A model generated the notes under the pieces. That model saw only the letters and a list, made by a program, of their open reading frames with translations. It made no database searches and was not told the origin of the DNA. This document shows, piece by piece, positions 8,401 through 62,890 of a stretch of DNA of 64,000 nucleotides (position 1 is the stretch's first letter; each line of letters begins with the position of its first letter). Where the stretch lies: contig CAXXGO010000006.1 of the NCBI GenBank assembly GCA_963666835.2, forward strand, positions 544,001-608,000, written 5' to 3'. Origin of the DNA: Phycisphaerae bacterium. Its GTDB lineage: Bacteria > Planctomycetota > Phycisphaerae > UBA1845. The position numbers were made by a program, and so were the translations under genes.

Positions 8401-9199
8401 CGGGCTCTCCGAGGGTGTGGGCATCGATCCGGACTTCATCGAGTCGGACCTTTCCGAGCTGGGCCCCTGTGCCCCGCCGGGCGACTGTGATGATGACGGC
8501 GACACCGACGAGGACGATTTCGCTGTTCTTTGGGACTGCTTCTCCGGTACGGATGGGGGAGTCGGAACCGGCTGCGGCTGCGTCAACCTGGATCGTGACA
8601 ACGACGTTGACTGCAAGGACTGGAACGAGTTTAGGAATCTGTGGACATACGGTGATCCGCCGACGTTCCCGCCGTGCGTTCGCCCGACGGCCGCGGCGGC
8701 AGGTTCGCGGTTCCTGGCGGTGACCCTCACTGAAGGACTCGACCCGGCGGCCATCTTGATTACCGGCGACTCCGCCGATCCGGCCGTAGCGTGTCTGTCG
8801 GTGTACGTACAGACGGATGGAACGCTTGGGCCCGACCCGGTCTTCCAGCTACCGAGCGAATGGGGCACTATCAGTGTCACAGGCCCCCAGATCGGTCCGA
8901 ACACGCAATACGCGGTTCAGGGAGACTACGGGACCGTAGGTAGCCCGATGCTGTCTCAGGAGGAGGAAGTAACCACCTGGCTCTGGGCTGATACCGACCA
9001 CAACCTCGTGGTCAGCATCGCCGACGTGCAGTCTTTGGTTCTGGAGTTCCAGAGTCCCGGCGGAATACCGATCGAGGCGGCGGACCAAGCTAACTGCATA
9101 CCGGATGGGGTCATCAACATGACCGACATCCAGTGGGCGGTCAGTTCGTTCCAGGGCAGCACTTTCTGGGGCGGGCAATGTGCCGCACCGTGCCCGTAA
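5471..9199 (+). CDS. Secreted C25 (gingipain-like) cysteine peptidase with propeptide, FN3-like, NIDO-like and dockerin-like domains
   Basis: RBS GGAGG, signal peptide, propeptide (GTPGLPVVRRL), C25 motifs YVLLVGD, IAIGRFP, YSGHG (His, 6818), SFAC (Cys, 6920), YNLMGDP. Dockerin-like pair GDCDDDGDTD/NLDRDNDVD. Ends ...PCP*. Confidence 0.88.
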   Translation: MRSFRSSLGLALCALAIALLGGSPVAGAVWVGMASDGSAVVEELAVSESPAVTVRGYDDSGIDVAIAIPGIAFSAEKTKGGEFVNVDWTEAPLTGEVGTPGLPVVRRLFVVPNGMTATLEVFTGESLVIDADVTGIALPVKPVQPPIPKLPGARENAVFVMDAASYAAGANMLPERAVIQDLGIVRGQHLMLLEVRPVDYTPAANVLTFWPDLQVEINFEGEAAPASALSAMPGLNRIVLNPQQAQGGTRGDGNYLIITGTNFETDIAGFAAAKAAQGFTVTTHAVSPGTSSSTIKSYIQGLWGTADAPEYVLLVGDTETIPAWTGSGTGSPDTDIQYGCMDGSSDWYPDIAIGRFPVDNATELQTIVDKTLYYENGPLADPTYKKRAVFMASVDNYSISEGTHNYVINTHLDPNGFVSDKLYQVTYGADTDDVINSFNDGRFFGVYSGHGGTYSWGDGPPLSQTQVRDLTNANMYAFICSFACITGTYTVDECFMETWVLTDNGAVTACGSSVNSWWDEDDILEKRLFDAIFDNADAVKTEAGPVYNEAKLRFLAHFGADSDTRRYFEMYNLMGDPALGLPAACSDAGELQVGQSSYACEDTVEIELTDCGLNLDDGVVDTVDVTISSDSEAAGEVVTLTETDGASAQFQGSIAVSVTDSAGVLLIAENDTITVTYIDADDGQGGTNVVVTATAGVDCTPPDISNVRTTVVEPRDATVALDANEPVRGTVNYGYTCANLAWSASGSGYSLFPTVNLSGLQDDRTYYYAVEAEDQAGNSVSDDAGGSCYSFTTPEVPDFFTELFDDTEFDLANMSVEFAPNGSTDFYDACMEEDVFSLPTDPAGGTTVTWTSGTDDDGYSTITLSGGATVSIYGTAYSTFYIGTNGYITFVHGETGTTESLSVHLSGIPRISGLFDDLDPGEGGSVTWKQLGDRAVVTWENVPEYNTSNSNTFQIEMYFDGTIRLSYLAIAVEDGLVGLSEGVGIDPDFIESDLSELGPCAPPGDCDDDGDTDEDDFAVLWDCFSGTDGGVGTGCGCVNLDRDNDVDCKDWNEFRNLWTYGDPPTFPPCVRPTAAAAGSRFLAVTLTEGLDPAAILITGDSADPAVACLSVYVQTDGTLGPDPVFQLPSEWGTISVTGPQIGPNTQYAVQGDYGTVGSPMLSQEEEVTTWLWADTDHNLVVSIADVQSLVLEFQSPGGIPIEAADQANCIPDGVINMTDIQWAVSSFQGSTFWGGQCAAPCP

Positions 9200-46068: not shown

Positions 46069-46900
46069 CGTCAGTAGCTCCCAGAAAGGTCCGGTCGGAC
46101 AGCGTGCGCCGGCCGGTATATGTGAAACGGACAGGCCTTTACAAAACAAGTCACCTAGATAGCTGCAATGGTCGTGCAGGCAGCCGGCAGAACACCGCGG
46201 GAGTTGTCTTATGGCGGCTTCTGCAACGTACTACCCAGCATTTGATTTGATCGGTATCAGCACAGGGAGGCTACAGTAAATGGCGGGCAAAATAATCCAG
46301 ATTAGTGCAACACTGCTTGGGGAAATTGGGAGAAGGCCAGTCTCGCAATAGCCTGGCCGAATAGGAGCTCGCCGTCGACGATCGGGTCTGTATATCCGGC
46401 GTTTTGGTTAGGGGGAACCCTACACCGCAAGGCCGCTCGTTCGACAAGGGTCTTCGGGTTTTTCCCAGCGCGTCAGTCGACGTTGACTTGGTTGCATGGC
46501 AAGACGTGGGGAATTCGGGTTCCAGCGAGCAGGGCTTGGCCACCACGACTCCATTCTACTGGCAGGACAGCTAAACACCTGACATGTCGAAGGCGACGGA
46601 CACCACCGACCGAATTCACGCCCGGGGATCGGTTGCCCGAGACGGCAGCCGGTCGGCCAGTGGAGACGGTCTGTACTAGGCCTGTGTGGTACCGCCCGGA
46701 CGTTTGACTTGCGACATCCAAGCATGATCGGGACGTTCGATGTTATCGGATGGTCGGTTTACCATCGGCATCCGCTGCTGCTGTCTGGAGAAGATAGGCA
46801 CTTTACAAAATAACAGTAAAACTACTTGGATCCGACGGCCGCGGGTGATACACTGAGGGGTTTGCACACCGTCCCAATAAGAGGAGGAGGTGAGGAGACG

Positions 46901-49630
46901 ATGCGCCAATTGGTTTTAATTGCTCTGACCGTTCTGGCAATCACGCCGTGGAGTGTTGCCCAGCAGGCCAAGACGGTTCCCCAGGATGTGCTGGATCGCA
47001 TCGTCGATAACGATCCGAACCCACTTCCGAAGTACCTGACGCCCGCGGAGCGGCTGATCCCGCGGAAGACCCGCACTGCTCTCGAGGTGCTGCAAACGAC
47101 GGCGCCCCCGACGGGAACGGTACATACCCCGGCGGAGTACGAGCTGAACGAGGGGTTGCTGATCAGTTGGGGGTCGTACAACGACGTGCTGACGGCCATG
47201 ACGGTCGGGGTGACCACGGGCGACCCGGACGGCATCATGTACATCCTGGTCAGCGGGGCGTCGGAACAGAGTAGCGCGACCAGCACGCTGACGTCGGCCG
47301 GGGCGGACATGAGCCAGGTGAGTTTCATCACGTACTCGACCAACACCGTCTGGATACGCGACTACGGTCCGCGTTTCATCTTCGAGGACGGAGTGCGGGC
47401 GATAGTCGATCACGACTACAACCGCCCGCGGCCGTCGGATGACGCGTTCCCGGCGTTTTTGAGTTCGCAGTGGGGCGAGCCGTTGTACGACATTGGTCTG
47501 ACCCACGGAGGCGGCAACTTCCATCTGTTCGCCACCGGTGACGCCTTCATGACAGACCTGATTCTGGACGAGAACTCCGGCTGGACGGAATCGCAGGTTC
47601 AAGACCGGTACGCGGATTACCAGAATCTCGATTTGACGATATACCCCGGCTTCCCCACCAGTTTCGATTCGACTCAGCACATCGACATGTGGATGCTCCC
47701 GGTTGGGGACGACGAGGTAATCATCGGGCAGTATTCGAGTTCTGCGGGTCAGCCGTACACGATTACGGAAAACGCGGTAACGGATCTCACGTCGCGCGGG
47801 TACACGGTTCACCGCACGCCGGGCTGGAACTCGGGCGGGACTCACTACACTTACACGAATGCGGTGATCTTCAACGATATCGTGTTTGTGCCGCGCTTCG
47901 GCGGCTCGTACACGACCCCGGACGCCCAGGCTTTGACGGTATTCGAGACCGCGTTCCCCGCGCCGCAGTATCAGGTTATCCAGGTGGATTGTTCGAGCAT
48001 CATCCACGCGGCCGGGGCGATGCACTGCATCGTAATGCACGTGCCGGCGTACGCGGACCCGATTCCGGTCGTCAAGGTGGTTTCTCCGAACGGGGGCGAG
48101 TACCGGACGGTGGGTCAGGAGTATGACATCACGTGGACGGCGCACGATGACGTCGGGATCACCGGGGTGGACCTGTATTATTCGACGGACGGTGGGGCGA
48201 CTTACCCTCACGTTATCGCCCTGGGCGAGCCGGACGATGGATCGTTTACGTGGCTGGTGCCGAATACCCCATCTACGGAGTGCCGGGTCCGGATCGTGGC
48301 ACATGATGCGGACACCAACTCCGGCGAGGACGTTTCCGACGCTGACTTCGAGATCACGCTATACGGCCCGCAGTTGTTCTACGATTTCCCGATGGATACC
48401 AATCCCGGGTGGACCACGCAGGGGCAATGGGCTTTCGGCAAGGCCACCGGCGGAGGGGGAGCCAACGGCGGTCCCGATCCCACGATGGGGAGCACGGGGA
48501 ACAATGTGTACGGATACAACCTCACCGGCGACTATGCCAACGGCATGCCGGAGTATCATCTGACCAGCACCGCTCTGGATTGCACCGGACTGGAGGACGT
48601 CCACCTGGTCTTCCAGCGGTGGCTGGGCGTTGAGACTTCGACCTACGACCACGCGTACGTGCGGGTGAGCAACAACGGCACGGCGTGGACCACCGTGTGG
48701 GAGAACACGGGCGAGGTCGCCGACACCGCGTGGATAGAGATGGACCTGGACATTTCCGCGGTGGCCGATGACCAGTCGACCGTGTATCTGCGTTGGACGA
48801 TGGGTATCAGCGACAGTTGGGAGGTGTATTGCGGTTGGAATATCGACGACGTCGAGATTTGGGCGATCGGCGATCCCGTGGACTGCAACGCCAACGGCAT
48901 CCCGGACAACCTGGACATCGCGCAAGGGACCAGCGAAGACTGCAACGTCAACGAAGTACCCGATGAGTGTGATATTGCCGAAGGGACCAGCACGGACTTG
49001 AACGGCAACACCGTCCCCGATGAATGTGAAGTCAGTGCACCGCTGGCGGCTTCCTGGCCGTACGGTTTCGGCAAGAACCGGTACATATCGCTGGCGCCGA
49101 ACAACAGCGGCGGGGTAAGCGTTGCCTTGCAGATCGAGTTGGAATCCAGTGTGTTCTTCCCGGATTCGGCCGGGCTGCTGGGATGGATCGGGGAGCCGGA
49201 CGGCGAGGGTATCAGCCGGATAACGACCACGCCGTTCTATACCGACGGCTGGCCCGCGATCGTTCATGTTGGAGACTGCTGGATAGTGCCGGCAGCGACC
49301 TATCATGTTCGGGCGACCGCGGATGAGGCCGTTTTTTCCGAAGATCTCGAACTTGATACTGTCTCGCAACCGTCGCCCAAGTACTGGTGCGACGCGGTGG
49401 GCAGTTACATCGGTGATGAATGGACGGGGCCGAACGGGGTGGTGAGCATGGATGACATCATGGCCACCATCCAGATGTTCCAGGCCTCGCCGAGCGCGCC
49501 GCCGCTTGTTTGGGTTGACGTTGATCCGCAGGTCCCCAACAAGGTGGTCAACATGACCGACGTCATGCAGATGGTGGGTGGATTCAAGGGTCTGCCTTAC
49601 CCGTTCAGCGCTCCGGCGGATTGCCCGTAG
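46901..49630 (+). CDS. Secreted agmatine/peptidylarginine deiminase (PPAD family) with Ig-like, beta-sandwich and shared C-terminal domain
   Basis: Strong RBS, signal peptide, PAEYE, WIRDYGP, GGN, HIDMW, YTN, GAMHC; SPNGGE Ig-like domain; ends YPFSAPADCP*. Confidence 0.88.
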   Translation: MRQLVLIALTVLAITPWSVAQQAKTVPQDVLDRIVDNDPNPLPKYLTPAERLIPRKTRTALEVLQTTAPPTGTVHTPAEYELNEGLLISWGSYNDVLTAMTVGVTTGDPDGIMYILVSGASEQSSATSTLTSAGADMSQVSFITYSTNTVWIRDYGPRFIFEDGVRAIVDHDYNRPRPSDDAFPAFLSSQWGEPLYDIGLTHGGGNFHLFATGDAFMTDLILDENSGWTESQVQDRYADYQNLDLTIYPGFPTSFDSTQHIDMWMLPVGDDEVIIGQYSSSAGQPYTITENAVTDLTSRGYTVHRTPGWNSGGTHYTYTNAVIFNDIVFVPRFGGSYTTPDAQALTVFETAFPAPQYQVIQVDCSSIIHAAGAMHCIVMHVPAYADPIPVVKVVSPNGGEYRTVGQEYDITWTAHDDVGITGVDLYYSTDGGATYPHVIALGEPDDGSFTWLVPNTPSTECRVRIVAHDADTNSGEDVSDADFEITLYGPQLFYDFPMDTNPGWTTQGQWAFGKATGGGGANGGPDPTMGSTGNNVYGYNLTGDYANGMPEYHLTSTALDCTGLEDVHLVFQRWLGVETSTYDHAYVRVSNNGTAWTTVWENTGEVADTAWIEMDLDISAVADDQSTVYLRWTMGISDSWEVYCGWNIDDVEIWAIGDPVDCNANGIPDNLDIAQGTSEDCNVNEVPDECDIAEGTSTDLNGNTVPDECEVSAPLAASWPYGFGKNRYISLAPNNSGGVSVALQIELESSVFFPDSAGLLGWIGEPDGEGISRITTTPFYTDGWPAIVHVGDCWIVPAATYHVRATADEAVFSEDLELDTVSQPSPKYWCDAVGSYIGDEWTGPNGVVSMDDIMATIQMFQASPSAPPLVWVDVDPQVPNKVVNMTDVMQMVGGFKGLPYPFSAPADCP

Positions 49631-49886
49631 CTTACGGGTAGATGAAGGGAACCGGCAACGAGTCGATTCCCGCTCGCAGTAGCAAGCGAAGCCTTCCGCG
49701 AGATGCTCGTGTTTCTTTCGGCGGGCCGTCGTAGGAAGAAGGCGGCGAAGCAGGGAGCGCCGCGTATCGGAGTCGTGCGGGTGCGCGTGCAGAGTCACCC
49801 GTACCGGGCGTTTGTGGAAGTCGGCGTATGCCCGCGCCGGAGAGCAAGCCGTCGTATGTTATTCATGCGGCATAGGAGAGAGTCCG

Positions 49887-52817
49887 ATGATCAGCACTAA
49901 TTGCCTCCCCGTCTTTTTGACGAGCATCTTGTTCGCGACTGCGTTATGCGGTACCGGCTTGGCAGACCCGCCATCCTCGTTTGATCTGCGCGACGTGGGC
50001 GGAATCGACTACGTCACCTCAATAAAAAGCCAGACCGGGGGGACATGCTGGACGCATGGAACGATGGCGGCGATCGAAGGCAACCTGTTGATGACCGGCG
50101 CCTGGACGGCGGCCGGCGAAACCGGAGAGCCGAACCTGGCCGAGTATCACCTCGACTGGTGGAACGGTTTCAACGAGCACAACAACGACGACCTTGATCC
50201 TCCGTCCGGCAGTGGGCTGGTAGTCCACGAAGGAGGCGACTATCGCGTGGCGACCGCATACCTTAGCCGGGGTGAAGGAGCGGTTCGGGACGAGGACGGG
50301 CAATCGTACAGTTCACCCCCCTCCCGGTCGGAACCGGGTTACCATTACTACTACCCGCGCGATGTGGAGTGGTTCACGGCCGGGGCGGATCTGAGCAACA
50401 TCGATACGCTCAAGAACAAGATCATGGCCGAAGGAGTCATGGGTACGTGCCTGGCGTACAGCAGTAGCTTCATCTCCAATTACATCCACTATCAGCCGCC
50501 GACCAGTACGATGCTCCCGAATCACGCGGTGGCGATCATCGGTTGGGATGACGATCAGGCGACGCAGGCCCCGCTGGACGGCGCCTGGCTCTGCAAGAAC
50601 AGTTGGGGGTCCGGCTGGGGTAATGACGGCTGCTTCTGGATCTCCTATTACGACAAGTGGGCCGGCCAGGAGCCCGAGATGGGCGCCGTGACCTTCCGAA
50701 ACGTCGAACCGTTCGCCTACGATAACATTTACTACCACGATTATCACGGCTGGCGGGACACGATGACCGGAATCACCGAGGCGTTCAACACGTTCACGGC
50801 CGAGGCCGACGAAACGCTGCAAGCGGTGAGTTTCTTCGTGGCCGCGGACAACGTGACGTATACCGTGCGGATCTATGACCGGTTCGAGGGCGGGGTGCTA
50901 CTGGATGAGCTTTCCAGCACTACGGGTCTGATCGAGTACTCCGGTTTTCACACCATCGATCTGGACAGTGCCGTCGGGTTGTCTGCGGGTGACGACTTCC
51001 ACATTTACGTAGAGCTATCCGCCGGGGGGCACCCGTTCGATCGCACGTCGGATGTGCCGGTTCTGCTCGGAGCGCGATATCGCACGATCGTCGAGTCGGC
51101 GGCCGGGCCGGGCGAGAGCTATTATCATAACGGCTCCGATTGGCGAGACCTGTACGATCATGAGTTTGCCGATTCTTCGTGGGATGGGACGGCCAACTTC
51201 TGTATCAAGGGGTTGGCGGTGGAGAAGGGGCTTTCGGTCACTCCCGACACGGGCCTGTTGGCTGCCGGGCCGGTCGGCGGTCCGTTCGAGCCGGTTTCCG
51301 CCGTTTATGACATAACGAACCAGGACGATCATGCGATCGACTTCGAGGTAACGAAGGACCCTGGGGACACGTGGTTCACGATTACCGGTGACACTACCGG
51401 AAACCTGGACCCGCAGGAGACCGCGCAAATAACCGTCGAGATCAACAGCGGGGCGGACGTTCTGAGCTCCGGAGCGTATAACGGCACGGTGTACATCACC
51501 AACACCACGGATCACCTGGGCGATACGGAGCGTCCGGTGCTATTGGCCGTGGGAGACCCGACCCTGCAATATGAATGGCTTCTCGATACCGATCCCGGCT
51601 GGACCACGGAAGGGCAGTGGGAGTTCGGAATTCCGTTGGGCGGAGGAGGATCTTCCGGAAATCCGGATCCGATGGGTGGCGGCTATACGGGCAGTAATGT
51701 TTATGGATATAACCTGGCCGGCGATTACTCGGTTAACGAACCTGAGCGGCACCTGACCAGTACGGCGATCGATTGCACCGGCCTGCTCAACGTGCATCTG
51801 AAGTTCTGGCGGTGGTTGGGCGTCGAGGAGCCGCGCTGGGATCATGCGTATGTTCGGGTGAGTAATGATGGGACCGATTGGGTCACCGTTTGGGAAAACG
51901 AGGATGAAGTGACCGACTCGACGTGGGTGGAGATGGACTTGGACATCTCGGAGGTGGCCGCCGATCAGGCGACCGTCTATTTGCGCTGGACGATGGGTAC
52001 TACGGATACCGCCGACGTCTTCTGCGGATGGAATATCGACGATATAGCCATTTGGGCGGTGGGTAGCCCGCCCGACTGCAACGACAACGGTATTCCGGAT
52101 CATTTGGATATTTCCGGCGGAACGAGCCCGGACTGCAACGGCAATGGCATTCCGGACGAGTGTGATATCGAGAGCGGGTTCAGCGTGGATAATAACGGCA
52201 ACGATATCCCCGACGAATGCGAGTTGTATCCGCCGGTCGCGGCCGATCCGCCCCACGACGTACTCAAGAACCGGTATTTGTCGTTCAACCCGAACAATAC
52301 CGAAACCGTAGCGCTCCGCGTCGAGATGACCGACAGCACCTTATTCCCGGGCTCTGTCGGCGCGTCCGGATGGGTTGCGGAGCCGGACGGAACCGGACGG
52401 GCCTCGCTTGCTGCGGCGCCGTTCTACAGCTCGGCCTGGCCGGCGCTCGTTCATGTGGGCCATTGCCGGATCACGCCGGGTTCGGAATACGAAGTCCGCG
52501 CCACCGCTGACGGGACCAACTTCTCCGACGCTTTGACGGTCATGACGGCGGACCAGCCGCTACCCAAGGTATGGGCCGACGTCGTGGGACCGTTCGGCAG
52601 TGCAGAGTGGACCGCACCCAACGGTATTGTGAGTATGGACGACCTCATGGCGGCGGTTCAGAAGTTCCAGGCGGTAGCAACAGCGCCACCTTTGACCTGG
52701 GTAGACGTAGACGGCGAACAGCCCAACGGGGTCGTGAATATGACCGACCTCCAGCAGATTGTGAATGCGTTCAAAGGTCAGTCGTACCCGTTCAGTGCTC
52801 CGGCTGACTGTCCATAG
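49887..52817 (+). CDS. Secreted papain-like C1A peptidase with lectin-like domain and shared C-terminal domain
   Basis: PSSFDLR, QTGGTCW (Cys), NHAVAIIGWDD (His), KNSWGSGWG (Asn), ANFCIKG; ends YPFSAPADCP*. Confidence 0.9.
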   Translation: MISTNCLPVFLTSILFATALCGTGLADPPSSFDLRDVGGIDYVTSIKSQTGGTCWTHGTMAAIEGNLLMTGAWTAAGETGEPNLAEYHLDWWNGFNEHNNDDLDPPSGSGLVVHEGGDYRVATAYLSRGEGAVRDEDGQSYSSPPSRSEPGYHYYYPRDVEWFTAGADLSNIDTLKNKIMAEGVMGTCLAYSSSFISNYIHYQPPTSTMLPNHAVAIIGWDDDQATQAPLDGAWLCKNSWGSGWGNDGCFWISYYDKWAGQEPEMGAVTFRNVEPFAYDNIYYHDYHGWRDTMTGITEAFNTFTAEADETLQAVSFFVAADNVTYTVRIYDRFEGGVLLDELSSTTGLIEYSGFHTIDLDSAVGLSAGDDFHIYVELSAGGHPFDRTSDVPVLLGARYRTIVESAAGPGESYYHNGSDWRDLYDHEFADSSWDGTANFCIKGLAVEKGLSVTPDTGLLAAGPVGGPFEPVSAVYDITNQDDHAIDFEVTKDPGDTWFTITGDTTGNLDPQETAQITVEINSGADVLSSGAYNGTVYITNTTDHLGDTERPVLLAVGDPTLQYEWLLDTDPGWTTEGQWEFGIPLGGGGSSGNPDPMGGGYTGSNVYGYNLAGDYSVNEPERHLTSTAIDCTGLLNVHLKFWRWLGVEEPRWDHAYVRVSNDGTDWVTVWENEDEVTDSTWVEMDLDISEVAADQATVYLRWTMGTTDTADVFCGWNIDDIAIWAVGSPPDCNDNGIPDHLDISGGTSPDCNGNGIPDECDIESGFSVDNNGNDIPDECELYPPVAADPPHDVLKNRYLSFNPNNTETVALRVEMTDSTLFPGSVGASGWVAEPDGTGRASLAAAPFYSSAWPALVHVGHCRITPGSEYEVRATADGTNFSDALTVMTADQPLPKVWADVVGPFGSAEWTAPNGIVSMDDLMAAVQKFQAVATAPPLTWVDVDGEQPNGVVNMTDLQQIVNAFKGQSYPFSAPADCP

Positions 52818-52890
52818 ATGGAGAATCTCTACGGAGCGCTTTCTCAGGGAAGTGTGCCCCGGATGATATGTAGAAAGGAATGGAACGAAA

Positions 52891-55800
52891 ATGTACGAGC
52901 CGACCGCTGCCCGAGATGCAAGGTTTCTCCGCATCGTGATGTTGGTCGTATTCGCCGCGGCTCTGGGACGCAGTGCGGGGGCGAGTCAATCCGAGCCGAT
53001 CGTTGTTTCCATGACGATCCCGGCGGAGTCGCCGAAAGTGATCCCGGGTGACGAGGGCAGCGAGTTGCGGGTCGAGGGGTTTGGCAACCTCCATTGCGCC
53101 GGCGAGCCGGCACTGCCCAGCAAGATCTTCGCGATCGGAATTCCCCCGGGGAGCGAAGTCGCCAAGGTGACGTTTGATTTGGGTGCCGAGGTTGTTTTAC
53201 CCGGAACGTATCGCGTCGCTCCGGCCAAGCTCTCGCGGGTCATCGGCGAGGAGGATCCCGCGCTGTACGCCCGAGATCTTCAGCGTTTCAACGAGCGTTA
53301 CGAAGCCGTGTACGGCAGCGATGATGCCTACCCATCGTTGACGGTGGAGCCCGTGCGGCAGGCCGGCTATCGCAAATATGATCTTGTCGATGTGCGGGTC
53401 ACCCCGGTCGCCTATCATCCGAAGTCCGGCCGGCTGAGCTACTACTCCGCTATCACGGTTCACGTCCACTGTGAGCCGGCGTCTGCTCCGAAGCAGGCTA
53501 TCGTGGACAGCCTGGCCAAGAACGAGCGTATTGCCCGGGAGATCGTGGCCAACTACGACCAGGCGGCCGGCTGGCATCCGCAGACGGACGCCGCTGCCAA
53601 GGGGCTGTACGACTTCGTTATTGTCACTTTGGATACTCTGACATCCGCGGTAACGCCGTTGGTTAATTGGGAGACGTCCAAAGGTCGCAATGTAAACGTC
53701 GTCACGACGTCCTGGATCGACGCCAACTACACCGGATACGACCTGGCCGAGAAGATCCGCAACTTCCTGCGGGAGAAGTACCCGTCCGGTGAATGGGGAA
53801 TACAGGATGTGTTGCTGATCGGGCATTACGACGATGTCCCGATGCGGCGGACAGCCCAGGATGTGGGATACGGCCAGCCGGAGACTGACTTCTATTATGC
53901 GGAGCTGTCGCTGCCGGATAGCGAATCCTGGGATTCCAACGGGAACCACCAATGGGGCGAGGACGCCGATGCGATTGACTTTTACGCGGAAGTGAACGTC
54001 GGGCGGATTCCGTGGAGCCAGCCGACTACGGTCGCGAGTATCTGCAACAAGTCGGTGGCATTCGAGCAGAACCAGGACCCCGCGTTCAAGAAGAACATGC
54101 TGCTTCTCGGGGCGTTCTTCTGGTGGGATACCGACAACGCTTATCTCATGGAGGCCAAGATCGATCAACCCTGGATGAGCGATTGGACGTTCACCCGGAT
54201 GTACGAGAAGAATACGGATTATTCGTCATCGTTCGATTGCGACTATCCGCTGCTCAACAGCAACGTAATGTCGGTCTGGCCGACAGGGCAGTACGCATTC
54301 GTGAACTGGGCCGGGCACGGTTCACCGACGTCGACGCACATATACGGTCTGGGAGCCCCCGCGTTTATCGATTCGTCCGATTGCCCCTCGCTGAGCGACG
54401 ACTATCCGGCGATCATCTTTGCGGATGCGTGCAGTAACTCGGACACGGACGATTTGAATATCGGCCAGGCCATGCTGGAGCACGGCGCGGTCGGATTTGT
54501 CGGTGCCACCAAGGTGGCTCTGGGTACTCACGCATGGTCGAGCGGCTATGACGGCTCCAGCCAATCACTCGACTACTTCTTCACTACGTGCGTAACTTCC
54601 GGCGAGTATACGCAAGGTGAAGCGCTGCAGTGGGGTCTGCGAGAGATGTACACCCACGGGCTGTGGGACTACAACAAGTACGAGACGTTCGAGTGGGGCG
54701 CGTTGTGGGGTAATCCGAATCTGCGAATCGGCCCACCGCCGATTATGAAGATTCAACTGCCGGACGGTCCGCCGGAGTATATGGAGCCCGGAGTCGCCAC
54801 GGAGTTTACCGTGCAGATTCAGAGTGGGTCCGAGACCTACGTGCCGGGCTCAGGCATGCTCCATTATCGCTACGACGGCGGAGTGTATCTGACGACTCCG
54901 CTCACCCACAATGTGGCGGATTACTATATCGCCACTCTGCCGGGGACCGGTTGTGCGTCTACGCCCGAGTTCTATATCAGCGCTCAGGGCGACGGGGGCA
55001 GCACGGTGCTCAACCCGGCCGCGGCGCCCAGCTCGGTCTACACCGCAACGGTGGGATTATGGGCTGCGGTTTTCGAGAATCCTCTTGACGTCGACCCCGG
55101 CTGGACTACCGAGGGGCTGTGGGCGTTCGGGCCGCCGACCGGCGGTGGAGGGGAACATGGCGGCCCGGATCCGACGAGCGGCTACACCGGTGATAACGTC
55201 TATGGCTATAACCTCAGCGGTGATTACGAAGATGAACTTACCGTCGAGCAGCATTTGACCAGCGCGGCCATCGACTGCAGCGCAAAGAGCAACGTGAAGC
55301 TGATGTTCCAGCGTTGGCTGGGGGTCGAACAGCCGCGCTGGGATCATGCATACGTTCGAGTTAGTAACAATGGTACGAATTGGACCACCGTATGGGAGAA
55401 TGAGCAGGAAGTCACCGACACCACTTGGCAGTTGTGCGAGTATGACATCTCCTCCGTCGCCGACGATCAGCCGAGTGTATACGTTCGCTGGACTATGGGT
55501 ACTACGGATACCAGTTACAGATACTGCGGCTGGAATATCGACGATGTCGAGGTATGGGCTCTGGATACGTCGTTCGAGACCTGTGCAGACGGCGTACTGA
55601 ACCAGGGCGAAGAGCGCATCGACTGCGGCGGGCCGTGCCCGCCCTGCGAATGCCTGACCGACGAGGAGTGTGGCGACGGGCTCTACTGCAACGGTGGGGA
55701 AGTGTGCGACGTGCTCGGGCACTGCGGATCCGGCGCGTACCCGTGCCCGGGCCAGATGTGCGATGACGCCGGCGACGCGTGCGTGGACATCGCTTGCACG

Positions 55801-57090
55801 ACGGCCCCGGAGTGCGACGACGGACTCTACTGCAACGGGATAGAAACTTGCGTAGGCGATGTTTGCCAACCGGGAACACCGATCGATTGCGGCGACGGCA
55901 TTGCCTGTACGGTAGATTCGTGTGACGAGGTCGCGGACACCTGTGTTAACCTGCCGAGTGCGACGCGATGTGATGACGGCCTGTACTGCAACGGGGTTGA
56001 GATCTGCGATGCTCTGACCGGTTGCCAGGGAGGCGCGGCCATCGAGTGCGGCGATGACGTGGACTGCACCGTAGACTCCTGCAACGAGCTTCTCGATACG
56101 TGCAATAACATTCCCAGCGACGCGGCGTGCGACAACGCTCTGTTCTGTGACGGAGCGGAAACGTGCGATCCGGTGGCCGGTTGTCTGACCGGAGTGGCTC
56201 CATGTGTTCCGGACCAGATGTGTCGCGAGACCGATGACCAGTGTGTCGAGTGCGTAGAGGACAAGGACTGCCCGGACGACGGGGATCTCTGTAATGGAGC
56301 GGAAGTATGCACGTACGCGGGCGATTGTACTCATACGCCGGTCGCCGACTGCAACGAGAACGGCGTGGAGGATGAATGCGATATTCTCGACGGTACGAGC
56401 GAGGACTGTCAGCCGAATGGGGTTCCGGATGTGTGCGATCTCGACGGCGGGGGATCGGCCGATGAGAATGGCAACGACATCCCGGACGAATGTGAGGCTG
56501 AGCCGCCGCTGGCGGCCCCAGCCCCGTACGATATCAGTTACAATCGCTACATCGCATTCATACCAAACAACTCCAGCGCTGTCGCGCTGCGGGTCGAGGT
56601 GACCGGGAGTGTGCATTCACCGGATTCGGTCGGAGTCTTCGGTTGGGTCGGGCAGCAGGGGCCGGATTCGGTATCGCAGATTGTCTCGGAGCCGTATTTC
56701 TCAGATTTCTGGCCCGCAGTGGTGCGCGTGGCCGATTGCCTGATCGTCCCGGCCGCAACGTACTCGATTACCGCGACCACCCAGGGGACGCTCTTTAGCG
56801 AGCCCTTGGAGGTAATGACCACGCCTGCGCCGTTGCCCAAGGCGTGGGCCGATGTAGTTGGCGAGTTTACGGGCGACAGTTGGTCGGCACCTGACGGTTT
56901 GGTGGGTATGAACGACATTATGGCGACTGTCCAACGGTTTCAGGCCGTACCGACGGCTCCGCCGACGATGCAGGTGGATGTCGACGGGCAGACGCCCAAC
57001 CGAGTGATTAACATGACGGATGTGCTTCAGGTGGTGAACGCGTACCAGGGTGAGCCGTACCCGTTCAGCGATCCGGCAGGCTGTCCGTAA
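52891..57090 (+). CDS. Secreted C25 (gingipain-like) peptidase with Cys-rich repeats and shared C-terminal domain
   Basis: Propeptide GEPALP, LLIGH, TDFYYA, VGRIP, WAGHG (54316), DACS (54430), LWGNP; CDDGLYCNG repeats; ends YPFSDPAGCP*. Confidence 0.88.
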   Translation: MYEPTAARDARFLRIVMLVVFAAALGRSAGASQSEPIVVSMTIPAESPKVIPGDEGSELRVEGFGNLHCAGEPALPSKIFAIGIPPGSEVAKVTFDLGAEVVLPGTYRVAPAKLSRVIGEEDPALYARDLQRFNERYEAVYGSDDAYPSLTVEPVRQAGYRKYDLVDVRVTPVAYHPKSGRLSYYSAITVHVHCEPASAPKQAIVDSLAKNERIAREIVANYDQAAGWHPQTDAAAKGLYDFVIVTLDTLTSAVTPLVNWETSKGRNVNVVTTSWIDANYTGYDLAEKIRNFLREKYPSGEWGIQDVLLIGHYDDVPMRRTAQDVGYGQPETDFYYAELSLPDSESWDSNGNHQWGEDADAIDFYAEVNVGRIPWSQPTTVASICNKSVAFEQNQDPAFKKNMLLLGAFFWWDTDNAYLMEAKIDQPWMSDWTFTRMYEKNTDYSSSFDCDYPLLNSNVMSVWPTGQYAFVNWAGHGSPTSTHIYGLGAPAFIDSSDCPSLSDDYPAIIFADACSNSDTDDLNIGQAMLEHGAVGFVGATKVALGTHAWSSGYDGSSQSLDYFFTTCVTSGEYTQGEALQWGLREMYTHGLWDYNKYETFEWGALWGNPNLRIGPPPIMKIQLPDGPPEYMEPGVATEFTVQIQSGSETYVPGSGMLHYRYDGGVYLTTPLTHNVADYYIATLPGTGCASTPEFYISAQGDGGSTVLNPAAAPSSVYTATVGLWAAVFENPLDVDPGWTTEGLWAFGPPTGGGGEHGGPDPTSGYTGDNVYGYNLSGDYEDELTVEQHLTSAAIDCSAKSNVKLMFQRWLGVEQPRWDHAYVRVSNNGTNWTTVWENEQEVTDTTWQLCEYDISSVADDQPSVYVRWTMGTTDTSYRYCGWNIDDVEVWALDTSFETCADGVLNQGEERIDCGGPCPPCECLTDEECGDGLYCNGGEVCDVLGHCGSGAYPCPGQMCDDAGDACVDIACTTAPECDDGLYCNGIETCVGDVCQPGTPIDCGDGIACTVDSCDEVADTCVNLPSATRCDDGLYCNGVEICDALTGCQGGAAIECGDDVDCTVDSCNELLDTCNNIPSDAACDNALFCDGAETCDPVAGCLTGVAPCVPDQMCRETDDQCVECVEDKDCPDDGDLCNGAEVCTYAGDCTHTPVADCNENGVEDECDILDGTSEDCQPNGVPDVCDLDGGGSADENGNDIPDECEAEPPLAAPAPYDISYNRYIAFIPNNSSAVALRVEVTGSVHSPDSVGVFGWVGQQGPDSVSQIVSEPYFSDFWPAVVRVADCLIVPAATYSITATTQGTLFSEPLEVMTTPAPLPKAWADVVGEFTGDSWSAPDGLVGMNDIMATVQRFQAVPTAPPTMQVDVDGQTPNRVINMTDVLQVVNAYQGEPYPFSDPAGCP

Positions 57091-57173
57091 GGGAGCAGGG
57101 GAGGTATCCGGTCGGCACTGGGAGCGTTTTGCCCTCGGGCCTGCCGGGTCCTCGAATGAAAGGAAACGTCACG

Positions 57174-59600
57174 ATGCAACGTATGACCGGTTGTACCAGC
57201 AAGCCTCATTGCAGGGCGTATTGGATTCTGGCAGTTGTCGTTGGGCTCAGTGCGAGCGGGGCCTTCGCGGGTGATTCAGCAGTCAGCCTGACGATATCGC
57301 CCGGCGAATGTCAGATAATCGACACGGAGAATGGGGTGAAGCCCTTTCTGGACGGGTTCGGCTACTCGCTCGTGCCGGGTACCCCGACCTTGCCGTCCAG
57401 GATCTTCGCCATTGCCGTCCCCGCCGGCGCGCAAGTGCAGGCAATCGACGTCGAGATGGGCGAAGGCGTACTGCTACCCGGGGCTTTCGATATCGCTCCG
57501 GCTCCGTTGCCGCGTGTGATCGGGCAGGAAGATCCGACGGTCTATGCCCGCGAAAAGGCGACCTATGACAGCAACTTCACCGCCGTGTACGAAAGCGCCG
57601 ACGCCTACCCAAAGCTCGCGGCGGAGCTGGTCCGCACGGCCGGGTATCGCAAGTATAACCTTGCAGATGTGCGGGTAACGCCGTTCGCCTATCGTCCCTT
57701 GCTGGGTGAGTTGACGTACTATCCGAACGTGACGGTCCATGTTCAGTACGATCTGCCGGATACGGCCCGGGCCGCGATTATCGACGACCTGCCCCGCACG
57801 GAACGGATCGCGCGGGAGATCATTGCTAATTATGACGAGGTTTCCGATTGGTATCCGCGGTCTGCGCGGGCGGGTCGCGGACTCCACGATTACGTCATCG
57901 TCACGACCGACTCCCTGGCCTCGTCCGTAACGTCTTTGGTTGATTGGGAGACATACAAAGGGCGAACGGTCGAGGTGGTAACCACGTCGTGGATCAACTC
58001 CAACTACTCGGGTTATGATACCGCGGAGAGAATCCGCAACTTCCTTCGGGACAAATACCCGTCCGGGGAGTGGGGTATAGAGGACGTGCTGCTCGTCGGG
58101 CATTACGATCAAGTGCCCATGCGCCGCACCGCTCAGGACGAAGGCTACGGAAGACCGGAGACGGACTTCTACTATGCAGAGCTTTCGCAAGCGGACAGCG
58201 ATTCGTGGGATAGCGACGGCGATCGGCAGTATGGGGAGTACAGTGATTCGATCGACTACTATGCGGAGGTCAACGTCGGGCGCATCCCGTGGAGCGATCG
58301 GGATACGGTTCAGCACATTTGCGAAAAATCTGTGGCCTACGAGCAGAACGGCGATCCAACCTATAAGAAAAACATGCTGCTGCTGGCCGCCTACTTCTGG
58401 GCGAATACGGATAACGCCGAGCTGATGGAAGAGAAGACCGCCCAACCTTGGCTGGCGGATTGGACGTTTACCAAGCTCTACGAGAAGAACGGCGATTACT
58501 GGTCCTCCTATGCCTGTGACTACCCGCTTACCCGTGCGAATGTCCAATCGGTATGGCGGAACGGTCAATTCGCATTCGTCAACTGGGCCGGGCATGGTTC
58601 TCCAACCTCGACCCACATTTACGGACTCGGGGGCACGGCCTTCGTGAACTCGTACGATTGCGGATTCCTGAACGATGATTATCCCGCCGTTATTTTCGCG
58701 GACGCCTGCAGCAACTCCGATACGGACGAAACCAACATAGGCCAGGAGATGCTCAGGCAGGGCGCGGTGGGGTTCGTCGGGGCCACCAAAGTGGCGTACG
58801 GCTGTAGCGGCTGGAACAGCCCCTATGACGGATCGAGCCAATCACTGGACTACTTCTTTACTTCGTATGTAACCAGCGGGGACTACACGCAGGGCGCGGC
58901 CCTGCAGCGGGCAATGCGCGAGATGTATACGAATGGGTTGTGGTACTACACCAAGTATGAGACTTTCGAGTGGGGGGCCTTATGGGGCAATCCGAATCTT
59001 AGTATGGATATACCCGACGTGTCGGCGCCTATAGCCGTGGGAGGACCGAAGAACCGTTATGTCTCCTTCGGACCTAATAGTGGCGGAATGTGGACGGCGT
59101 ATCAGGTCGAGCTGACCGACAGCGAGTACTTTCCGGAGTCCCGCGGAGTGCTCGGCTGGGTCGGTGAACCTGACGCCGATGGAATCGCGAGCATCGTTGC
59201 CGAGCCGTATTTCACCGGGGACTGGCCGGAGGTTGTTCATGTAGGTGACTGCCGGATCGTCCCGGCTGCGGTTTACGAAGTCCGGGCGAGCGGGGACGGA
59301 GTAATGCTGACCAACGCGCTGGAGCTGCCTACGATAACCAGCCCGAATGGGAAATACTGGTGCGACTGCGTCGGCCCGTTTATCGGAGAGTGGTCCTGGC
59401 CGGATGGCAATGTGACGATGGACGACATAATGGCCGCCGTTCAGGTCTTTCAGGCCGCGCCGTCCGCCCCGCATGTGACCTGCGTGGACGTCGACGCCCA
59501 GGAACCCAACAAGGTGGTCAATATGACCGACATTATGCGGATTGCTCAGGGATTCGGCGGAGAGCCGTATCCGTTCTGTGATCCGGGTGCGTGCCCGTAG
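57174..59600 (+). CDS. Secreted C25 (gingipain-like) peptidase, minimal form with shared C-terminal domain
   Basis: Close paralogue of the catalytic region of 52891..57090, fused directly to the C-terminal domain; ends YPFCDPGACP*. Alternative start at 57156. Confidence 0.88.
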   Translation: MQRMTGCTSKPHCRAYWILAVVVGLSASGAFAGDSAVSLTISPGECQIIDTENGVKPFLDGFGYSLVPGTPTLPSRIFAIAVPAGAQVQAIDVEMGEGVLLPGAFDIAPAPLPRVIGQEDPTVYAREKATYDSNFTAVYESADAYPKLAAELVRTAGYRKYNLADVRVTPFAYRPLLGELTYYPNVTVHVQYDLPDTARAAIIDDLPRTERIAREIIANYDEVSDWYPRSARAGRGLHDYVIVTTDSLASSVTSLVDWETYKGRTVEVVTTSWINSNYSGYDTAERIRNFLRDKYPSGEWGIEDVLLVGHYDQVPMRRTAQDEGYGRPETDFYYAELSQADSDSWDSDGDRQYGEYSDSIDYYAEVNVGRIPWSDRDTVQHICEKSVAYEQNGDPTYKKNMLLLAAYFWANTDNAELMEEKTAQPWLADWTFTKLYEKNGDYWSSYACDYPLTRANVQSVWRNGQFAFVNWAGHGSPTSTHIYGLGGTAFVNSYDCGFLNDDYPAVIFADACSNSDTDETNIGQEMLRQGAVGFVGATKVAYGCSGWNSPYDGSSQSLDYFFTSYVTSGDYTQGAALQRAMREMYTNGLWYYTKYETFEWGALWGNPNLSMDIPDVSAPIAVGGPKNRYVSFGPNSGGMWTAYQVELTDSEYFPESRGVLGWVGEPDADGIASIVAEPYFTGDWPEVVHVGDCRIVPAAVYEVRASGDGVMLTNALELPTITSPNGKYWCDCVGPFIGEWSWPDGNVTMDDIMAAVQVFQAAPSAPHVTCVDVDAQEPNKVVNMTDIMRIAQGFGGEPYPFCDPGACP

Positions 59601-59761
59601 CACGGACGCGCTGACCGGCAGAAGACCGCAGCGCATTCGTAATAGAGACTGGGCCCACTCTTTCCCCCCGTGGCAAGAGGGGTTGAGTACCGCGCGCGTT
59701 GAACGCCGCGCTTGTTGAGCACTTTGCCTGTCGACAACGGCGGCGACTGAAGGAGTCGACC

Positions 59762-62700
59762 ATGGTGCAGTGGGTAGCTTGGGTTGTCATCGGGCTGGCG
59801 ACCGCGGCGTCGGTGACGGGCGCGGATCCGGAATCCGTGGCCGAGGTCACTACAAGGAGCCCGGACGCGCTAGTCACGGCGAAAGCTGAGTTGCGCGGTA
59901 TTGAACGAACCGGCAGGGTTCGGCAGGATCCGCGGGACATTCCCCGTTTGAAGTGGACTTCGCCGCATGGCGAGCTACCCGGTACGTACGCTGAGTATCT
60001 GCGCCGCCATCCACTCGAGACGGCACGCTACTTACCCGAGCGGACAATGCCGGCCGCACCACCGGCACGGGGAGTCGAGCCCGTAATCCTCTCTATCCTT
60101 GTCGACGCCGATCTGCAACCACTGATCTCCGTTGCGCTGGACGAATACGTTGCGGACCTCTCGGCCGAGGGATATACGGTCCGGGTCGGAAGCGTCTCCG
60201 GCGGCACGCCGGCGGAGATCAAGGGGTGGGTGGCGGGGCAACACGCCACCGGAAGCGACGGAGTGATCTTCATCGGAGATATCACGGCCGCCTGGGCGGA
60301 GGTCTCGGAATCGGTCTTTCCCAGCGATCTGTTCTATATGGATCTTGACGGGCTGTGGGCGGACGAGGACGGGGATGGGGACTTCGAAGTCCATGAGGCC
60401 GGGGCGGGGGACGAGGGCCCGGAGATCTACGTGGCCCGCATGTACGCCCACACTCTCGATTACGACACCGAAGCCAACATGGTCAGCGCGTATCTGGCCA
60501 AGGCCCACGCCTATCGCACCGGTACTCTGACCCAGCCTTGGCGAGGTTTGGAGTATGTCGACGAAGACTGGTACTCCATGTCGGTCGATTTGGAACAGGT
60601 CTACGGCGGTGATGTCGCCCGGTACGATCTCGGGTTCTCCACCACGGCCGCGGATTACCTGGAGAAGATGGATATTGGACAGCATTTCGTCCAGGTGTGT
60701 GCCCACAGCTACTCGGGCGGTCATCACTTCGGCCAACGTCCGACCGAGGCGGCGGCCTATGCCCATGTGTATGTCCACAGCCCGACTGCTCGGGCGGCTA
60801 AGCTGCTGGTCGGCAGCGACGATGGTATCAAGGTCTGGCTGAACGGCGCAAACGTCCTGACCGAGGACGTGTATCAGGGTTGGATAGCGGATCAATTCGA
60901 TGTCGACGTGACGCTTGATGAGGGCTGGAATAGCCTGTTGTGCAAGGTCAGCCAAGCCGGGGGCAGTTACGGGTTCTCGGCCCGGGTGACGGATCCGGCG
61001 TACTCATCGTTTAGCGATCTTACCTATCAAGTGAATGATCCGACGGTCTTCGTATCGCAGGAACAGTTCATTCGCGGTTGGCTGCTCAATGGGTTTCACG
61101 AGGACATCTCGGACAACTTCTGGAGTTATCTGACCACGAACTACCTGGGGACGGATGAGGACAGAATCAACCCAACGGCCGGTGATGTAATGGGCGGTCA
61201 GACTTGGACCCTCTACACGACGGACAGCGGCTATGTCAATATGGATCCCGGCGATGAGCTGAGTTTCGGTGCTTCTTACGCGTTCACCAGAGTGTACGCG
61301 GTGGAGGCCACGAGTTGTCAGCTCTGGCTTGGTTACGACGAAGGCGCCCGGGTGTGGCTGAATGGGGCGGTCGTGCTTACGGACAATCGCTACGGTGATT
61401 TCGAATTGGACCTGGCCAAGATCGATGTGAATCTGACTGCCGGAGAGAACCGGCTGCTCATCAAAGTGTCGGAGTGGGTGGGCCCGCACGGTCTGGCTGC
61501 CCAGTTCCGCCAGGCGGACGGCGGGGCGGTCGCCGGCCTGACGTACGATCCGGACCCGCCGCCGATAAGTTTCATTGCAGACTGGCTCATCAACGGGCCC
61601 TACGGGAATGTCGACGACGCCACCCGGCTGAGCCAGGACTACCTCGGCGATGAAGCGACCGTGACACCCAGCGAGGGCGATCCCGCGGCGTTCGAAGTGT
61701 GGAACCGCCTCTTCGCCACCGGCGCCCCGGTCGACCTGGTTGCCCCTCTGGAACGCGACGGCGGGTGGGTAACCTCGGCCGACATCCAACAACAGGATCC
61801 GCCGGTGCTCTTCTACAATCTGTTCGCGTGCGGGCCCGGCCGGTTTACCGACGACAATTACTTAGCCGGGTCGTATATCTTCAACACGACATACGGTCTG
61901 ATTACGATTGCGTCATCCAAGAGCGGCAGCATGCTCAACTTCGCAGACTTCACCGCTCCGCTTGGTGAAGGCAAAACAATCGGCACAGCCTTTCTCGAGT
62001 GGTTTGACGCCCAAGCCCCGTTCGACCTGTGGGAACGTGAGTGGTACTACGGCATGGTCCTCAACGGCGACCCGACGCTTCGTCCGGTCAAGGCCGGTGA
62101 CCTCGATCGCGACGGCGACGTTGACGCGGACGACTTCGATTCGTTCGTAATGTGCTTCACCGGTACGGGCGGCGGACCGATCGCTCCCGAATGTGCCCCG
62201 GGTGATTCCGATTCCGACGGCGACGTCGATTGTGATGACTGGACCCAGTTTGAGCTATCCTGGACTGAGGCCGGTGCCCCGCCGACACTGGCGGTGTGCG
62301 ACGTTGCCGCTCCGCTTCCGGCCCCGGCACCTCACGACGGTCCTAAGAACCGCTACGTGTCCTTCGCTCCCGCCGCCGGCGAGAATCTCGCGTTCCGCGT
62401 GGAGCTGACGCAGTCGGCGCTGTTTCCCGATTCGACCGGTCCGGTCGGCTGGGTCGGTGCTCCGGATGCCGAAGGGTTGGCACTATTGATTAGTGAGCCG
62501 TATTACACCGACTCCTGGCCTGCGGTAGTGCATGCCGGGGGCTGTGCGGTGACGCCGGCGGCGACGTATCGGATTCGGGCAACGGACGGAGTGGGTGAAT
62601 CCGACCCGCTGGATGTGGCAACGGCCGCAGCCCCGACGCCGAAACACTGGGCTGACTGCGTAGGCGAGTTCGTCGGCTCCTGGGGCCCGCCGAACGGGTT

Positions 62701-62890
62701 AGTTAACGTAAACGATCTAATGGCCGCGATTCAGAAGTTCCAGGCCCTTCCCACCGCCCCGCATTCATCCTGGGTCGACGTAGACGGCGAGACGCCGAAT
62801 CAAGTCGTCAATATGACCGACGTCCAACAGATTCTGAACGGGTACAAAGGCAGTCCGTATCCGTTCAGCGCCCCGGCCGACTGCCCGTAG
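59762..62890 (+). CDS. Secreted C25-like peptidase with inserted PA14-like modules, dockerin-like pair and shared C-terminal domain
   Basis: RBS AAGGAG, GVIFIGD, SDLFYMDLDG, PEIYVARM, CAHS, LFACG, LNGDPTL; GSDDGIKVWLNG modules; GDLDRDGDVD/GDSDSDGDVD; ends YPFSAPADCP*. Confidence 0.8.
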   Translation: MVQWVAWVVIGLATAASVTGADPESVAEVTTRSPDALVTAKAELRGIERTGRVRQDPRDIPRLKWTSPHGELPGTYAEYLRRHPLETARYLPERTMPAAPPARGVEPVILSILVDADLQPLISVALDEYVADLSAEGYTVRVGSVSGGTPAEIKGWVAGQHATGSDGVIFIGDITAAWAEVSESVFPSDLFYMDLDGLWADEDGDGDFEVHEAGAGDEGPEIYVARMYAHTLDYDTEANMVSAYLAKAHAYRTGTLTQPWRGLEYVDEDWYSMSVDLEQVYGGDVARYDLGFSTTAADYLEKMDIGQHFVQVCAHSYSGGHHFGQRPTEAAAYAHVYVHSPTARAAKLLVGSDDGIKVWLNGANVLTEDVYQGWIADQFDVDVTLDEGWNSLLCKVSQAGGSYGFSARVTDPAYSSFSDLTYQVNDPTVFVSQEQFIRGWLLNGFHEDISDNFWSYLTTNYLGTDEDRINPTAGDVMGGQTWTLYTTDSGYVNMDPGDELSFGASYAFTRVYAVEATSCQLWLGYDEGARVWLNGAVVLTDNRYGDFELDLAKIDVNLTAGENRLLIKVSEWVGPHGLAAQFRQADGGAVAGLTYDPDPPPISFIADWLINGPYGNVDDATRLSQDYLGDEATVTPSEGDPAAFEVWNRLFATGAPVDLVAPLERDGGWVTSADIQQQDPPVLFYNLFACGPGRFTDDNYLAGSYIFNTTYGLITIASSKSGSMLNFADFTAPLGEGKTIGTAFLEWFDAQAPFDLWEREWYYGMVLNGDPTLRPVKAGDLDRDGDVDADDFDSFVMCFTGTGGGPIAPECAPGDSDSDGDVDCDDWTQFELSWTEAGAPPTLAVCDVAAPLPAPAPHDGPKNRYVSFAPAAGENLAFRVELTQSALFPDSTGPVGWVGAPDAEGLALLISEPYYTDSWPAVVHAGGCAVTPAATYRIRATDGVGESDPLDVATAAAPTPKHWADCVGEFVGSWGPPNGLVNVNDLMAAIQKFQALPTAPHSSWVDVDGETPNQVVNMTDVQQILNGYKGSPYPFSAPADCP

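Follow-up and report, generated by a model that had tools for sequence, protein, structure and literature searches.

For Nemodlikiaceae, a "planctosome" has been hypothesized in which Phycisphaerae-related cohesin and dockerin modules tether peptidases through tiers of anchors and adaptors (available part of PMC6461901). The type II X-dockerins of clostridial scaffoldins (PDB 2b59_B, 4wi0_B, 4u3s_B and 5g5d_B), together with the enzyme-borne type II dockerin 2y3n_B, place two Asp-containing loop-helix repeats behind a beta-sandwich, and the C-terminal domain (CTD, TIGR04183) of the type IX secretion system (T9SS) is a C-terminal tag on gingipain- and PPAD-family enzymes. Here, a window of 64,000 nucleotides from a Phycisphaerae bacterium (GenBank assembly GCA_963666835.2, contig CAXXGO010000006.1, positions 544,001 to 608,000 of the forward strand) was analysed together with the remainder of the genome and its relatives. 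The subject is a C-terminal module shared by five consecutive enzyme genes in the window. On balance, we consider it probable that this module is a lineage-specific X-dockerin serving a multi-tier, exosortase-anchored cohesin-dockerin surface assembly, in which it would dock on an unannotated cohesin named CohC.

The tandem array described in an earlier note on this DNA proved to be real. Five consecutive plus-strand open reading frames (ORFs) occupy window positions 46826-62890 with gaps of 181, 73, 38 and 98 nucleotides, every one terminating in Cys-Pro directly before the stop codon, and the last 200 residues of their products share 49-58% pairwise identity (blastp E 1e-55 or lower, far beyond chance). 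The features of the array, and one related feature elsewhere in the window, are as follows.

46901..49630, + strand (ORF 46826-49630): PPAD/agmatine-deiminase-family enzyme (PF04371) with an immunoglobulin-like (Ig-like) domain, a choice-of-anchor-J-like domain and the module; assigned by Pfam and the motifs WIRDYGP, HID and GAMHC; likely start 46901
49031..49627, + strand: module copy 1, FN3-like X domain plus dockerin-like half (49370-49627)
49887..52817, + strand (ORF 49812-52817): papain-family C1A peptidase (PF00112) with lectin-like PF18560 and the module
52224..52814, + strand: module copy 2, the copy whose fold was predicted (dockerin-like half 52557-52814)
52891..57090, + strand (ORF 52891-57090): peptidase of the gingipain family C25 that has a propeptide, Cys-rich repeats and the module; GHG and ACS motifs
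56497..57087, + strand: module copy 3 (dockerin-like half 56830-57087)
57156..59600, + strand (ORF 57129-59600): C25 peptidase with propeptide, the module following directly; start codon uncertain, 57156-57183
59007..59597, + strand: module copy 4 (dockerin-like half 59343-59597)
59762..62890, + strand (ORF 59699-62890): divergent C25-like protein with a large insertion, then an ordinary dockerin, then the module
62090..62263, + strand: the ordinary dockerin, of the class named DocD, immediately 5' of module copy 5
62303..62887, + strand: module copy 5 (dockerin-like half 62633-62887)
8663..9196, + strand: divergent module variant that ends a further C25 peptidase (5471-9199) and follows a DocD dockerin (hhalign probability 98.7%, E 2.6e-16)

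About six such divergent variants occur across the genome. Of the three catalytic families named in the earlier note, Pfam recovered PF04371 (E 6e-28), PF00112 (2e-14) and, twice, PF01364 (6e-38 and 9e-43), whereas the fifth protein gave only a weak C25 match under the cut-off (E 5e-4), its His and Cys motifs lying about 350 residues apart. Active-site motifs that we take to be catalytic were found in all five enzymes. The module was located where that note had put it, with its NRY motif (49076, 52269, 56542, 59052 and 62348) one codon after the coordinates given there, but it measures about 198 rather than 180 residues and begins about 14 residues N-terminal to NRY.

A search of the genome with a profile built from the five window copies (one iteration) retrieved 55 full copies plus fragments, so the module is not restricted to this locus. 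On a quick tree the window copies were scattered (4 changes against 4.9 when shuffled), which left local duplication unsupported, a single origin not being formally excluded. As the copies are spread genome-wide and ungrouped on the tree, the array is best regarded as a cluster of tagged genes and not as the unit of interest. Among five relatives searched, the array was not seen elsewhere; a PPAD homologue occurred in one and C25 homologues in two, and in one of them (G353) they lay far apart. The widespread C-terminal location anticipated in the earlier note was found, although it is not strict: of the 55 copies, 50 finish within two residues of the stop, 40 have Cys-Pro as their last residues, and the five that lie elsewhere comprise one apparent read-through ORF, two RHS-cassette ORFs, one copy before CohC and one before a 127-residue domain. 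The read-through ORF (L005:5520-10265) contains an internal IPTL-CTERM tail and an extended sequence past the module; it resembles two genes joined through two lost stop codons, possibly by an assembly error. When the genome contigs were scanned with a single module copy, one short match was obtained (L046, 36 residues).

The tagged proteins are of many kinds. By Pfam, the cargo of the 55 copies includes 17 peptidases (C25, C1A, C10, M1, M10, M43, S8 and trypsin) and one deiminase, besides FG-GAP, BNR, PQQ and SBBP propellers, FGE-like, DUF7901, RHS and lectin proteins and cohesin adaptors; 15 had no Pfam family at E 1e-5. No cellulase family was assigned by Pfam among the 55 cargoes, 15 of them without any family, and in this respect the system is not a cellulosome in the strict sense, which has dockerin-bearing cellulases and a scaffoldin with a carbohydrate-binding module. 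With this cargo, the extracellular complex proposed earlier would not be a purely proteolytic one. One tagged RHS protein (L023:7386-14153, minus strand; G000:C1:1482366-1489136) has a signal-peptide-like N-terminus and carries the module inside the RHS shell, and downstream of its gene lie orphan RHS C-terminal cassettes with differing tips; the sequence suggests a Sec-exported polymorphic toxin that would be displayed through docking.

Within the family, 51 of the 84 further genomes contain the module; it was found in none of 16 sampled genomes from other families of the order and in none of 300 genomes elsewhere in the phylum (10 candidates scored per genome). A representative library yielded 3,180 module clusters (50% identity) at E 0.001; one homologue was labelled Phycisphaerales by its source, and the closest Atlas clusters were from Planctomycetota. 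Within the best 150 homologues, 135 had a C-terminal copy and 30 had several copies, up to seven in one chain (P0003), and some carried the module right behind the signal peptide. P0003, P0001 and P0004 contain three to seven modules spaced by Asp/Cys-rich repeats, an arrangement like an inverted scaffoldin.

These positions bear on the lineage-specific export signal that the earlier note had offered as an alternative. By analogy with the T9SS CTD and PorU, the module would then address an outer-membrane translocon and be cleaved off or transferred by transpeptidation, for which a C25 enzyme might be responsible. Its mostly C-terminal location, here and in the homologues, its beta-sandwich, its confinement to one family and its diverse cargo would fit, and the C25 enzymes are weakly PorU-like (E 1e-6 to 1e-18, far under the 420-bit cut-off). 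However, the repeated, N-terminal and internal copies, the latter within the RHS shell and ahead of CohC, disfavour a cleavable signal, and this reading leaves the dockerin motifs and the cohesin partner unexplained. The five proteins matched no T9SS-CTD model of NCBIfam at E 0.1, in agreement with the lack of likeness noted earlier, and searches with TIGR04183 and TIGR04189 returned no match in this genome or in control genomes. We consider the export signal highly improbable.

The anatomy of the module points instead to a dockerin. In the predicted model of copy 2 (predicted local distance difference test, pLDDT, 96; predicted template modelling score, pTM, 0.90), residues 1-112 form a beta-sandwich, followed by helices at 138-148, 157-160 and 173-183; in a fold search the sandwich matched FN3 domains with middling Z scores of 5-6. 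The last 86 residues contain two repeats in which positions 1 and 12 are Asp and positions 5 and 9 Asn, in what we take to be the conventional dockerin numbering. Positions 1, 5, 9 and 12 are kept in both repeats and position 3 only in repeat 2; Asp1 and Asp12 are conserved in 51/51, 51/51 and 50/51, 51/51 members over the two repeats, and predicted helices follow. The two calcium-loop/helix units that the earlier note had read in the last 80 or so residues are therefore consistent with the predicted model, and the module shows the duplicated Asp-loop and helix repeat, with Asp at 1 and 12 and Asn or Asp at 3, 5 and 9, by which a dockerin is recognised, apart from position 3 of repeat 1 (definitions of dockerins and of type II from the available part of PMC12484212).

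Profile comparisons pointed in the same direction. In three PDB searches, type II dockerins made up 5/6, 7/8 and 7/7 of the matches, all weak; the genome profile accounted for 7/8 (best E 0.0017) and a diverse profile for 7/7 (E 0.0035-0.12). The dockerin half aligned with the PF00404-positive class DocE (probability 88%, E 2.8e-6). An Atlas search gave Dockerin_1 as the first named clusters, one of them dockerin plus FN3 (score 0.80, a lead only). With the CipA/ScaA X module, only the last 30 or so residues of the module sandwich aligned, and these weakly. No Pfam family covers the module in the five window proteins. In whole-module fold searches no dockerin or X-dockerin chain was among the top 50, these lists being filled by FN3 matches to residues 1-129. 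Taken together, the model and the profiles suggest that the module is a predicted FN3-like domain joined to a likely calcium-binding, type II-like dockerin. It would resemble an X-dockerin in its working, and its scores place it outside both PF00404 and NF041540.

Three cohesin classes were distinguished in this genome and named CohA, CohB and CohC. CohA, found from PF00963 seeds, comprises 13 domains and matches PDB cohesins at E 9e-9, the best being type II cohesins (E 8.8e-9). CohB is a small cohesin-like class of 5 copies (hhalign probability to CohA 35%; loci L062, G000:C6:1340067-1342043, and L058). CohC comprises 29 domains in 26 ORFs; it matched no Pfam or NCBIfam family and no PDB cohesin at E 10, and its hhalign probability to CohA was 0.8%. 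Its predicted model (pLDDT 93.7) clearly has a cohesin fold: structural ranks 1-19 were all cohesins (Z 10.0-13.4, the next non-cohesin at Z 9.0), with a root-mean-square deviation of 2.4-3.0 over 124-144 residues and a Foldseek E of 7e-7. An Atlas search with CohC gave matches under 0.9 only, with one cohesin cluster at 0.84.

CohC is fused to the module in nine proteins, to IPTL-CTERM in three, to CohA-XDocB in four and to DocE in four, and otherwise stands alone. Three CohC-IPTL proteins and one protein with two CohA domains and IPTL score over the TIGR04174 IPTL-CTERM cut-off, and both types recur in relatives; we infer from these architectures that cohesin proteins are anchored at the surface through IPTL-CTERM. 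The genome encodes 68 IPTL-CTERM-like tails, and behind an IPTL-CTERM gene at L100:20-2641 come an exosortase-H-like gene and the gene of another membrane protein that resembles exosortases weakly. Proteins with two to four tandem CohA domains followed by IPTL-CTERM are conserved (L061:9745-11256 and L151-L170; 18 of 20 loci), and from their sequence they are candidate exosortase-anchored scaffoldins. Other dockerin domains number 88 DocD, 11 DocE and 11 XDocB. XDocB, a further X-dockerin class without annotation, carries an additional EF-hand-like tail, occurs in 25 of 40 relatives and does not align with the module; its identification as a full-length CipA-type X-dockerin was set aside, only its dockerin part having matched the PDB. 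A conserved CohC-CohA-XDocB adaptor of about 900-1100 residues was found at L051, L053 and L054 in this genome (G000) and in G012, G015, G017, G019, G020 and G022.

The phylogenetic profiling for a cohesin partner that had been proposed beforehand favoured CohC. In the 84 family genomes, module and CohC were both present in 50, the module alone in 1, CohC alone in 6 and neither in 27; for CohA the corresponding numbers were 49, 2, 18 and 15. In the top 150 homologues, 37 carried CohC in the same chain as the module and none carried CohA. Short CohC ORFs were then considered, 20 from 20 genomes, picked on length from match lists before their neighbours were seen: 14 were CohC-DocE adaptors, and at 13 of the 20 loci a module lay within 1.2 kb. 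Near tandem-CohA genes, a module was found at 1 of 20 loci (18 genomes), or at 2 when one lying farther away is included, and in this genome the CohA neighbours within 5 kb were DocD genes at 5 of 9 and module genes at 0 of 9. In three genomes where CohC is plentiful and the standard module rare or absent (G004, G011 and G017), CohC often stands directly behind a C-terminal dockerin variant; many large proteins there (L067-L096) end in this variant plus CohC, which would permit head-to-tail chains. We infer that CohC is considerably favoured over CohA as the partner of the module. With its FN3-like sandwich, paired helices, type II profile matches and a co-distributed candidate partner of cohesin fold with surface anchors, the Ig-like plus atypical dockerin tag envisaged in the earlier note has held up.

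A competing reading accepts the module as a dockerin but gives it the type II-like CohA of the tandem CohA-IPTL-CTERM scaffoldin as partner, CohC binding another dockerin class. The best PDB matches of CohA and of the module are type II cohesins and type II dockerins, respectively; the absence of CohA from module chains is what adaptor logic expects; and the tandem protein is a textbook-like anchoring scaffoldin. Against this, 18 genomes of the family have CohA but no module, as do 5 of the 16 sampled from other families, its profile of occurrence agrees with that of XDocB (24/25), and its genes lie near DocD and not near the module. We consider CohA an unlikely partner.

Several observations weigh against the docking of the module on CohC. 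Module copy number correlates more closely with genome size (rho 0.89) than with CohC (0.76) or CohA (0.69), and the co-occurrence of module and CohC looks stronger than it is on account of kinship and in-chain fusion. Classical adaptors join a cohesin to a non-cognate dockerin, and by this logic the CohC-module fusions could mean that the two do not bind each other. The tandem CohA-IPTL scaffoldin occurs only in module-positive genomes (18 of 84), and at least four further dockerin classes accompany the module and the three cohesin classes here. As for the dockerin itself, both loops contain insertions between positions 4 and 5 (10 and 3 residues) and the acid at position 3 is missing from loop 1, which may alter the binding of calcium. 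The dockerin similarity is weak and lies beneath the Pfam and NCBIfam cut-offs: NF041540 matched 15 of 23 members, in itself a point for a dockerin, but always under the cut-off (18.7-23.7 bits versus 29), a genome-wide NF041540 search gave no module match over it, and PF00404 matched 2 of 51 members at all (best E 0.0014) and 1 of 23 in relatives, below its gathering threshold. The exosortase-H-like protein scores under the XrtH cut-off (64.5 versus 86). Finally, a hydropathy heuristic for signal peptides, itself a weak test, was positive for 42 of the 55 tagged proteins and for 636 of 1268 background proteins.

Surface retention could also proceed without any cohesin, with the module binding envelope polysaccharide, S-layer, minerals or itself via calcium and CohC as a co-travelling structural domain. 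No cohesin was detected in the seven-module chain of P0003, the available part of PMC5244752 mentions dockerins outside cellulosomes that have no known function, and dockerin-like domains (about 170) greatly exceed cohesins (47) in this genome. Such a reading must contend with the tight genomic and neighbourhood linkage of the module to cohesin-fold CohC and with the placement of CohC after related dockerin variants in the three genomes above. A dockerin excess is, moreover, usual in cellulosomes. We regard retention without a cohesin as quite unlikely.

Whatever the partner, the module behaves in sequence comparisons as one of several interchangeable surface-retention tails, since homologous enzymes replace it by IPTL-CTERM or by other dockerins. 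Of 51 C-terminally tagged proteins, 24 share a paralogous region with a protein ending in IPTL-CTERM, DocD, DocE or XDocB, some of these matches running through shared accessory domains or CohC. The window C1A enzyme has a 64%-identical paralogue ending in DocD elsewhere in the genome, a tagged propeller protein is 62% identical to an IPTL-tailed one, and the 61%-identical homologue in G370 of the window C25 enzyme (57156..59600) ends in IPTL-CTERM instead; in G353 the PPAD homologue still carries the module. In another reading the module is a mere stabilising or calcium-regulated cap that spread through domain shuffling and has no targeting role, and the tagged proteins are indeed highly mosaic, with many shuffled repeat domains. 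Yet module and IPTL-CTERM tails are mutually exclusive save in the read-through ORF, and helix-face residues are near-fixed within the genome (Met10 in 42 and 50 of 51; Gln35 in 51/51) while shifting between lineages, as recognition residues do; four residues, three Asp and one Phe, are the same in all lineages compared, and positions 10-11 drift. A mere cap is the least credible of the explanations considered.

In the favoured model of an X-dockerin docking on CohC, cargo would leave the cell via Sec by an N-terminal signal peptide, as hydropathy suggests. The two Asp-bounded loops would bind calcium and present the two predicted helices, which the X domain and probably a terminal disulfide would stabilise. 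The helices would then bind CohC, consistent with co-occurrence, fusion and neighbourhood. CohC would be held directly by an IPTL-CTERM/exosortase anchor or via the CohC-DocE and CohC-CohA-XDocB adaptors, whose other dockerins would bind the tandem CohA-IPTL-CTERM scaffoldins. Proteins that carry CohC together with the module, or several modules, would lengthen the assembly and add cross-links, and a cellulosome-like coat on the cell surface would result, one that degrades protein and other polymers, mediates adhesion and possibly displays toxins. A bolder version, which we put forward only tentatively, is a self-extending meshwork of one Phycisphaerae family, in which CohC-module chains would polymerise in head-to-tail fashion, multi-dockerin proteins cross-link, exosortase-anchored cohesins root the structure, and the three classes of cohesin, each with its own orthogonal specificity, direct about 170 dockerin-tagged proteins, the putative RHS toxin included, into a digestive, adhesive and antagonistic coat.

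Elsewhere in the window, a stand-alone reverse transcriptase (PF00078, E 1.6e-40) is encoded at 12378-13883 (+ strand). At 42466-44139 (- strand) lies the gene of a probable lipoprotein that has no annotation and contains a low-complexity linker rich in Asn and Asp; next to it are genes for a methyl-accepting chemotaxis protein (44179-46149) and for a long protein of the MscS family (38799-42008).

Literature searches, with subscription papers and supplements outside their scope, found no paper on the module, CohC or IPTL-anchored scaffoldins. With the present analysis the planctosome idea becomes a named, testable parts list in a diderm: a dockerin tag and a cohesin family, both unannotated, together with conserved adaptors and candidates for exosortase-anchored scaffoldins. 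If the proposed binding is true, a sizeable set of hypothetical proteins from an uncultured lineage would be accounted for, IPTL-CTERM proteins would gain a concrete role, cohesin-dockerin assembly would serve protein-degrading, adhesive and antagonistic cargo, and new orthogonal cohesin-dockerin pairs would become available for designer enzyme complexes.

Compared with known systems, the T9SS CTD shares the position and the enzyme families of the module, which differs in being over twice as long, in lacking a sequence match, in having dockerin motifs and in that it may be internal or repeated. The module has the same order of sandwich and loop-helix repeats as the clostridial X-dockerins, and the W-x-x-D start, N-x-x-D and Phe-ended helices of type II dockerins align with it; by contrast, in fold searches its X domain resembles FN3, insertions are present in both of its loops, the module ends in Tyr-Pro-Phe...Cys-Pro, it sits on about 55 cargo proteins of a diderm instead of one scaffoldin, and the similarity is weak (E about 0.002 or worse). 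The NF041540 GC-type dockerin is likewise a C-terminal dockerin variant on many proteins, and the module aligns with positions 3-64 of its 67; the best score of the module stays at 23.7 bits, and the NF041540 model omits the X domain. In the cellulosome-like complex of Ca. Stygibacter (Cloacimonadota), also a diderm, dockerin-tailed S8 and C25 peptidases are proposed to dock on a scaffoldin; according to the available part of that report (PMC8542988), it relies on one large tandem-cohesin scaffoldin, a CTD anchor and dockerins found by InterProScan. Sequence-invisible cohesins of ruminococci were, like CohC, found through predicted structure alone, in gut Firmicutes and with carbohydrate enzymes (available part of PMC13463774). 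The planctosome model, in the part of PMC6461901 available, comprises recognised cohesin and dockerin modules, a lamin-tail-domain anchor and M12B/M14 peptidases, whereas here the tag and the main cohesin are unannotated, the anchors are IPTL-CTERM tails, three cohesin and five dockerin classes coexist, and the cargo is broader.

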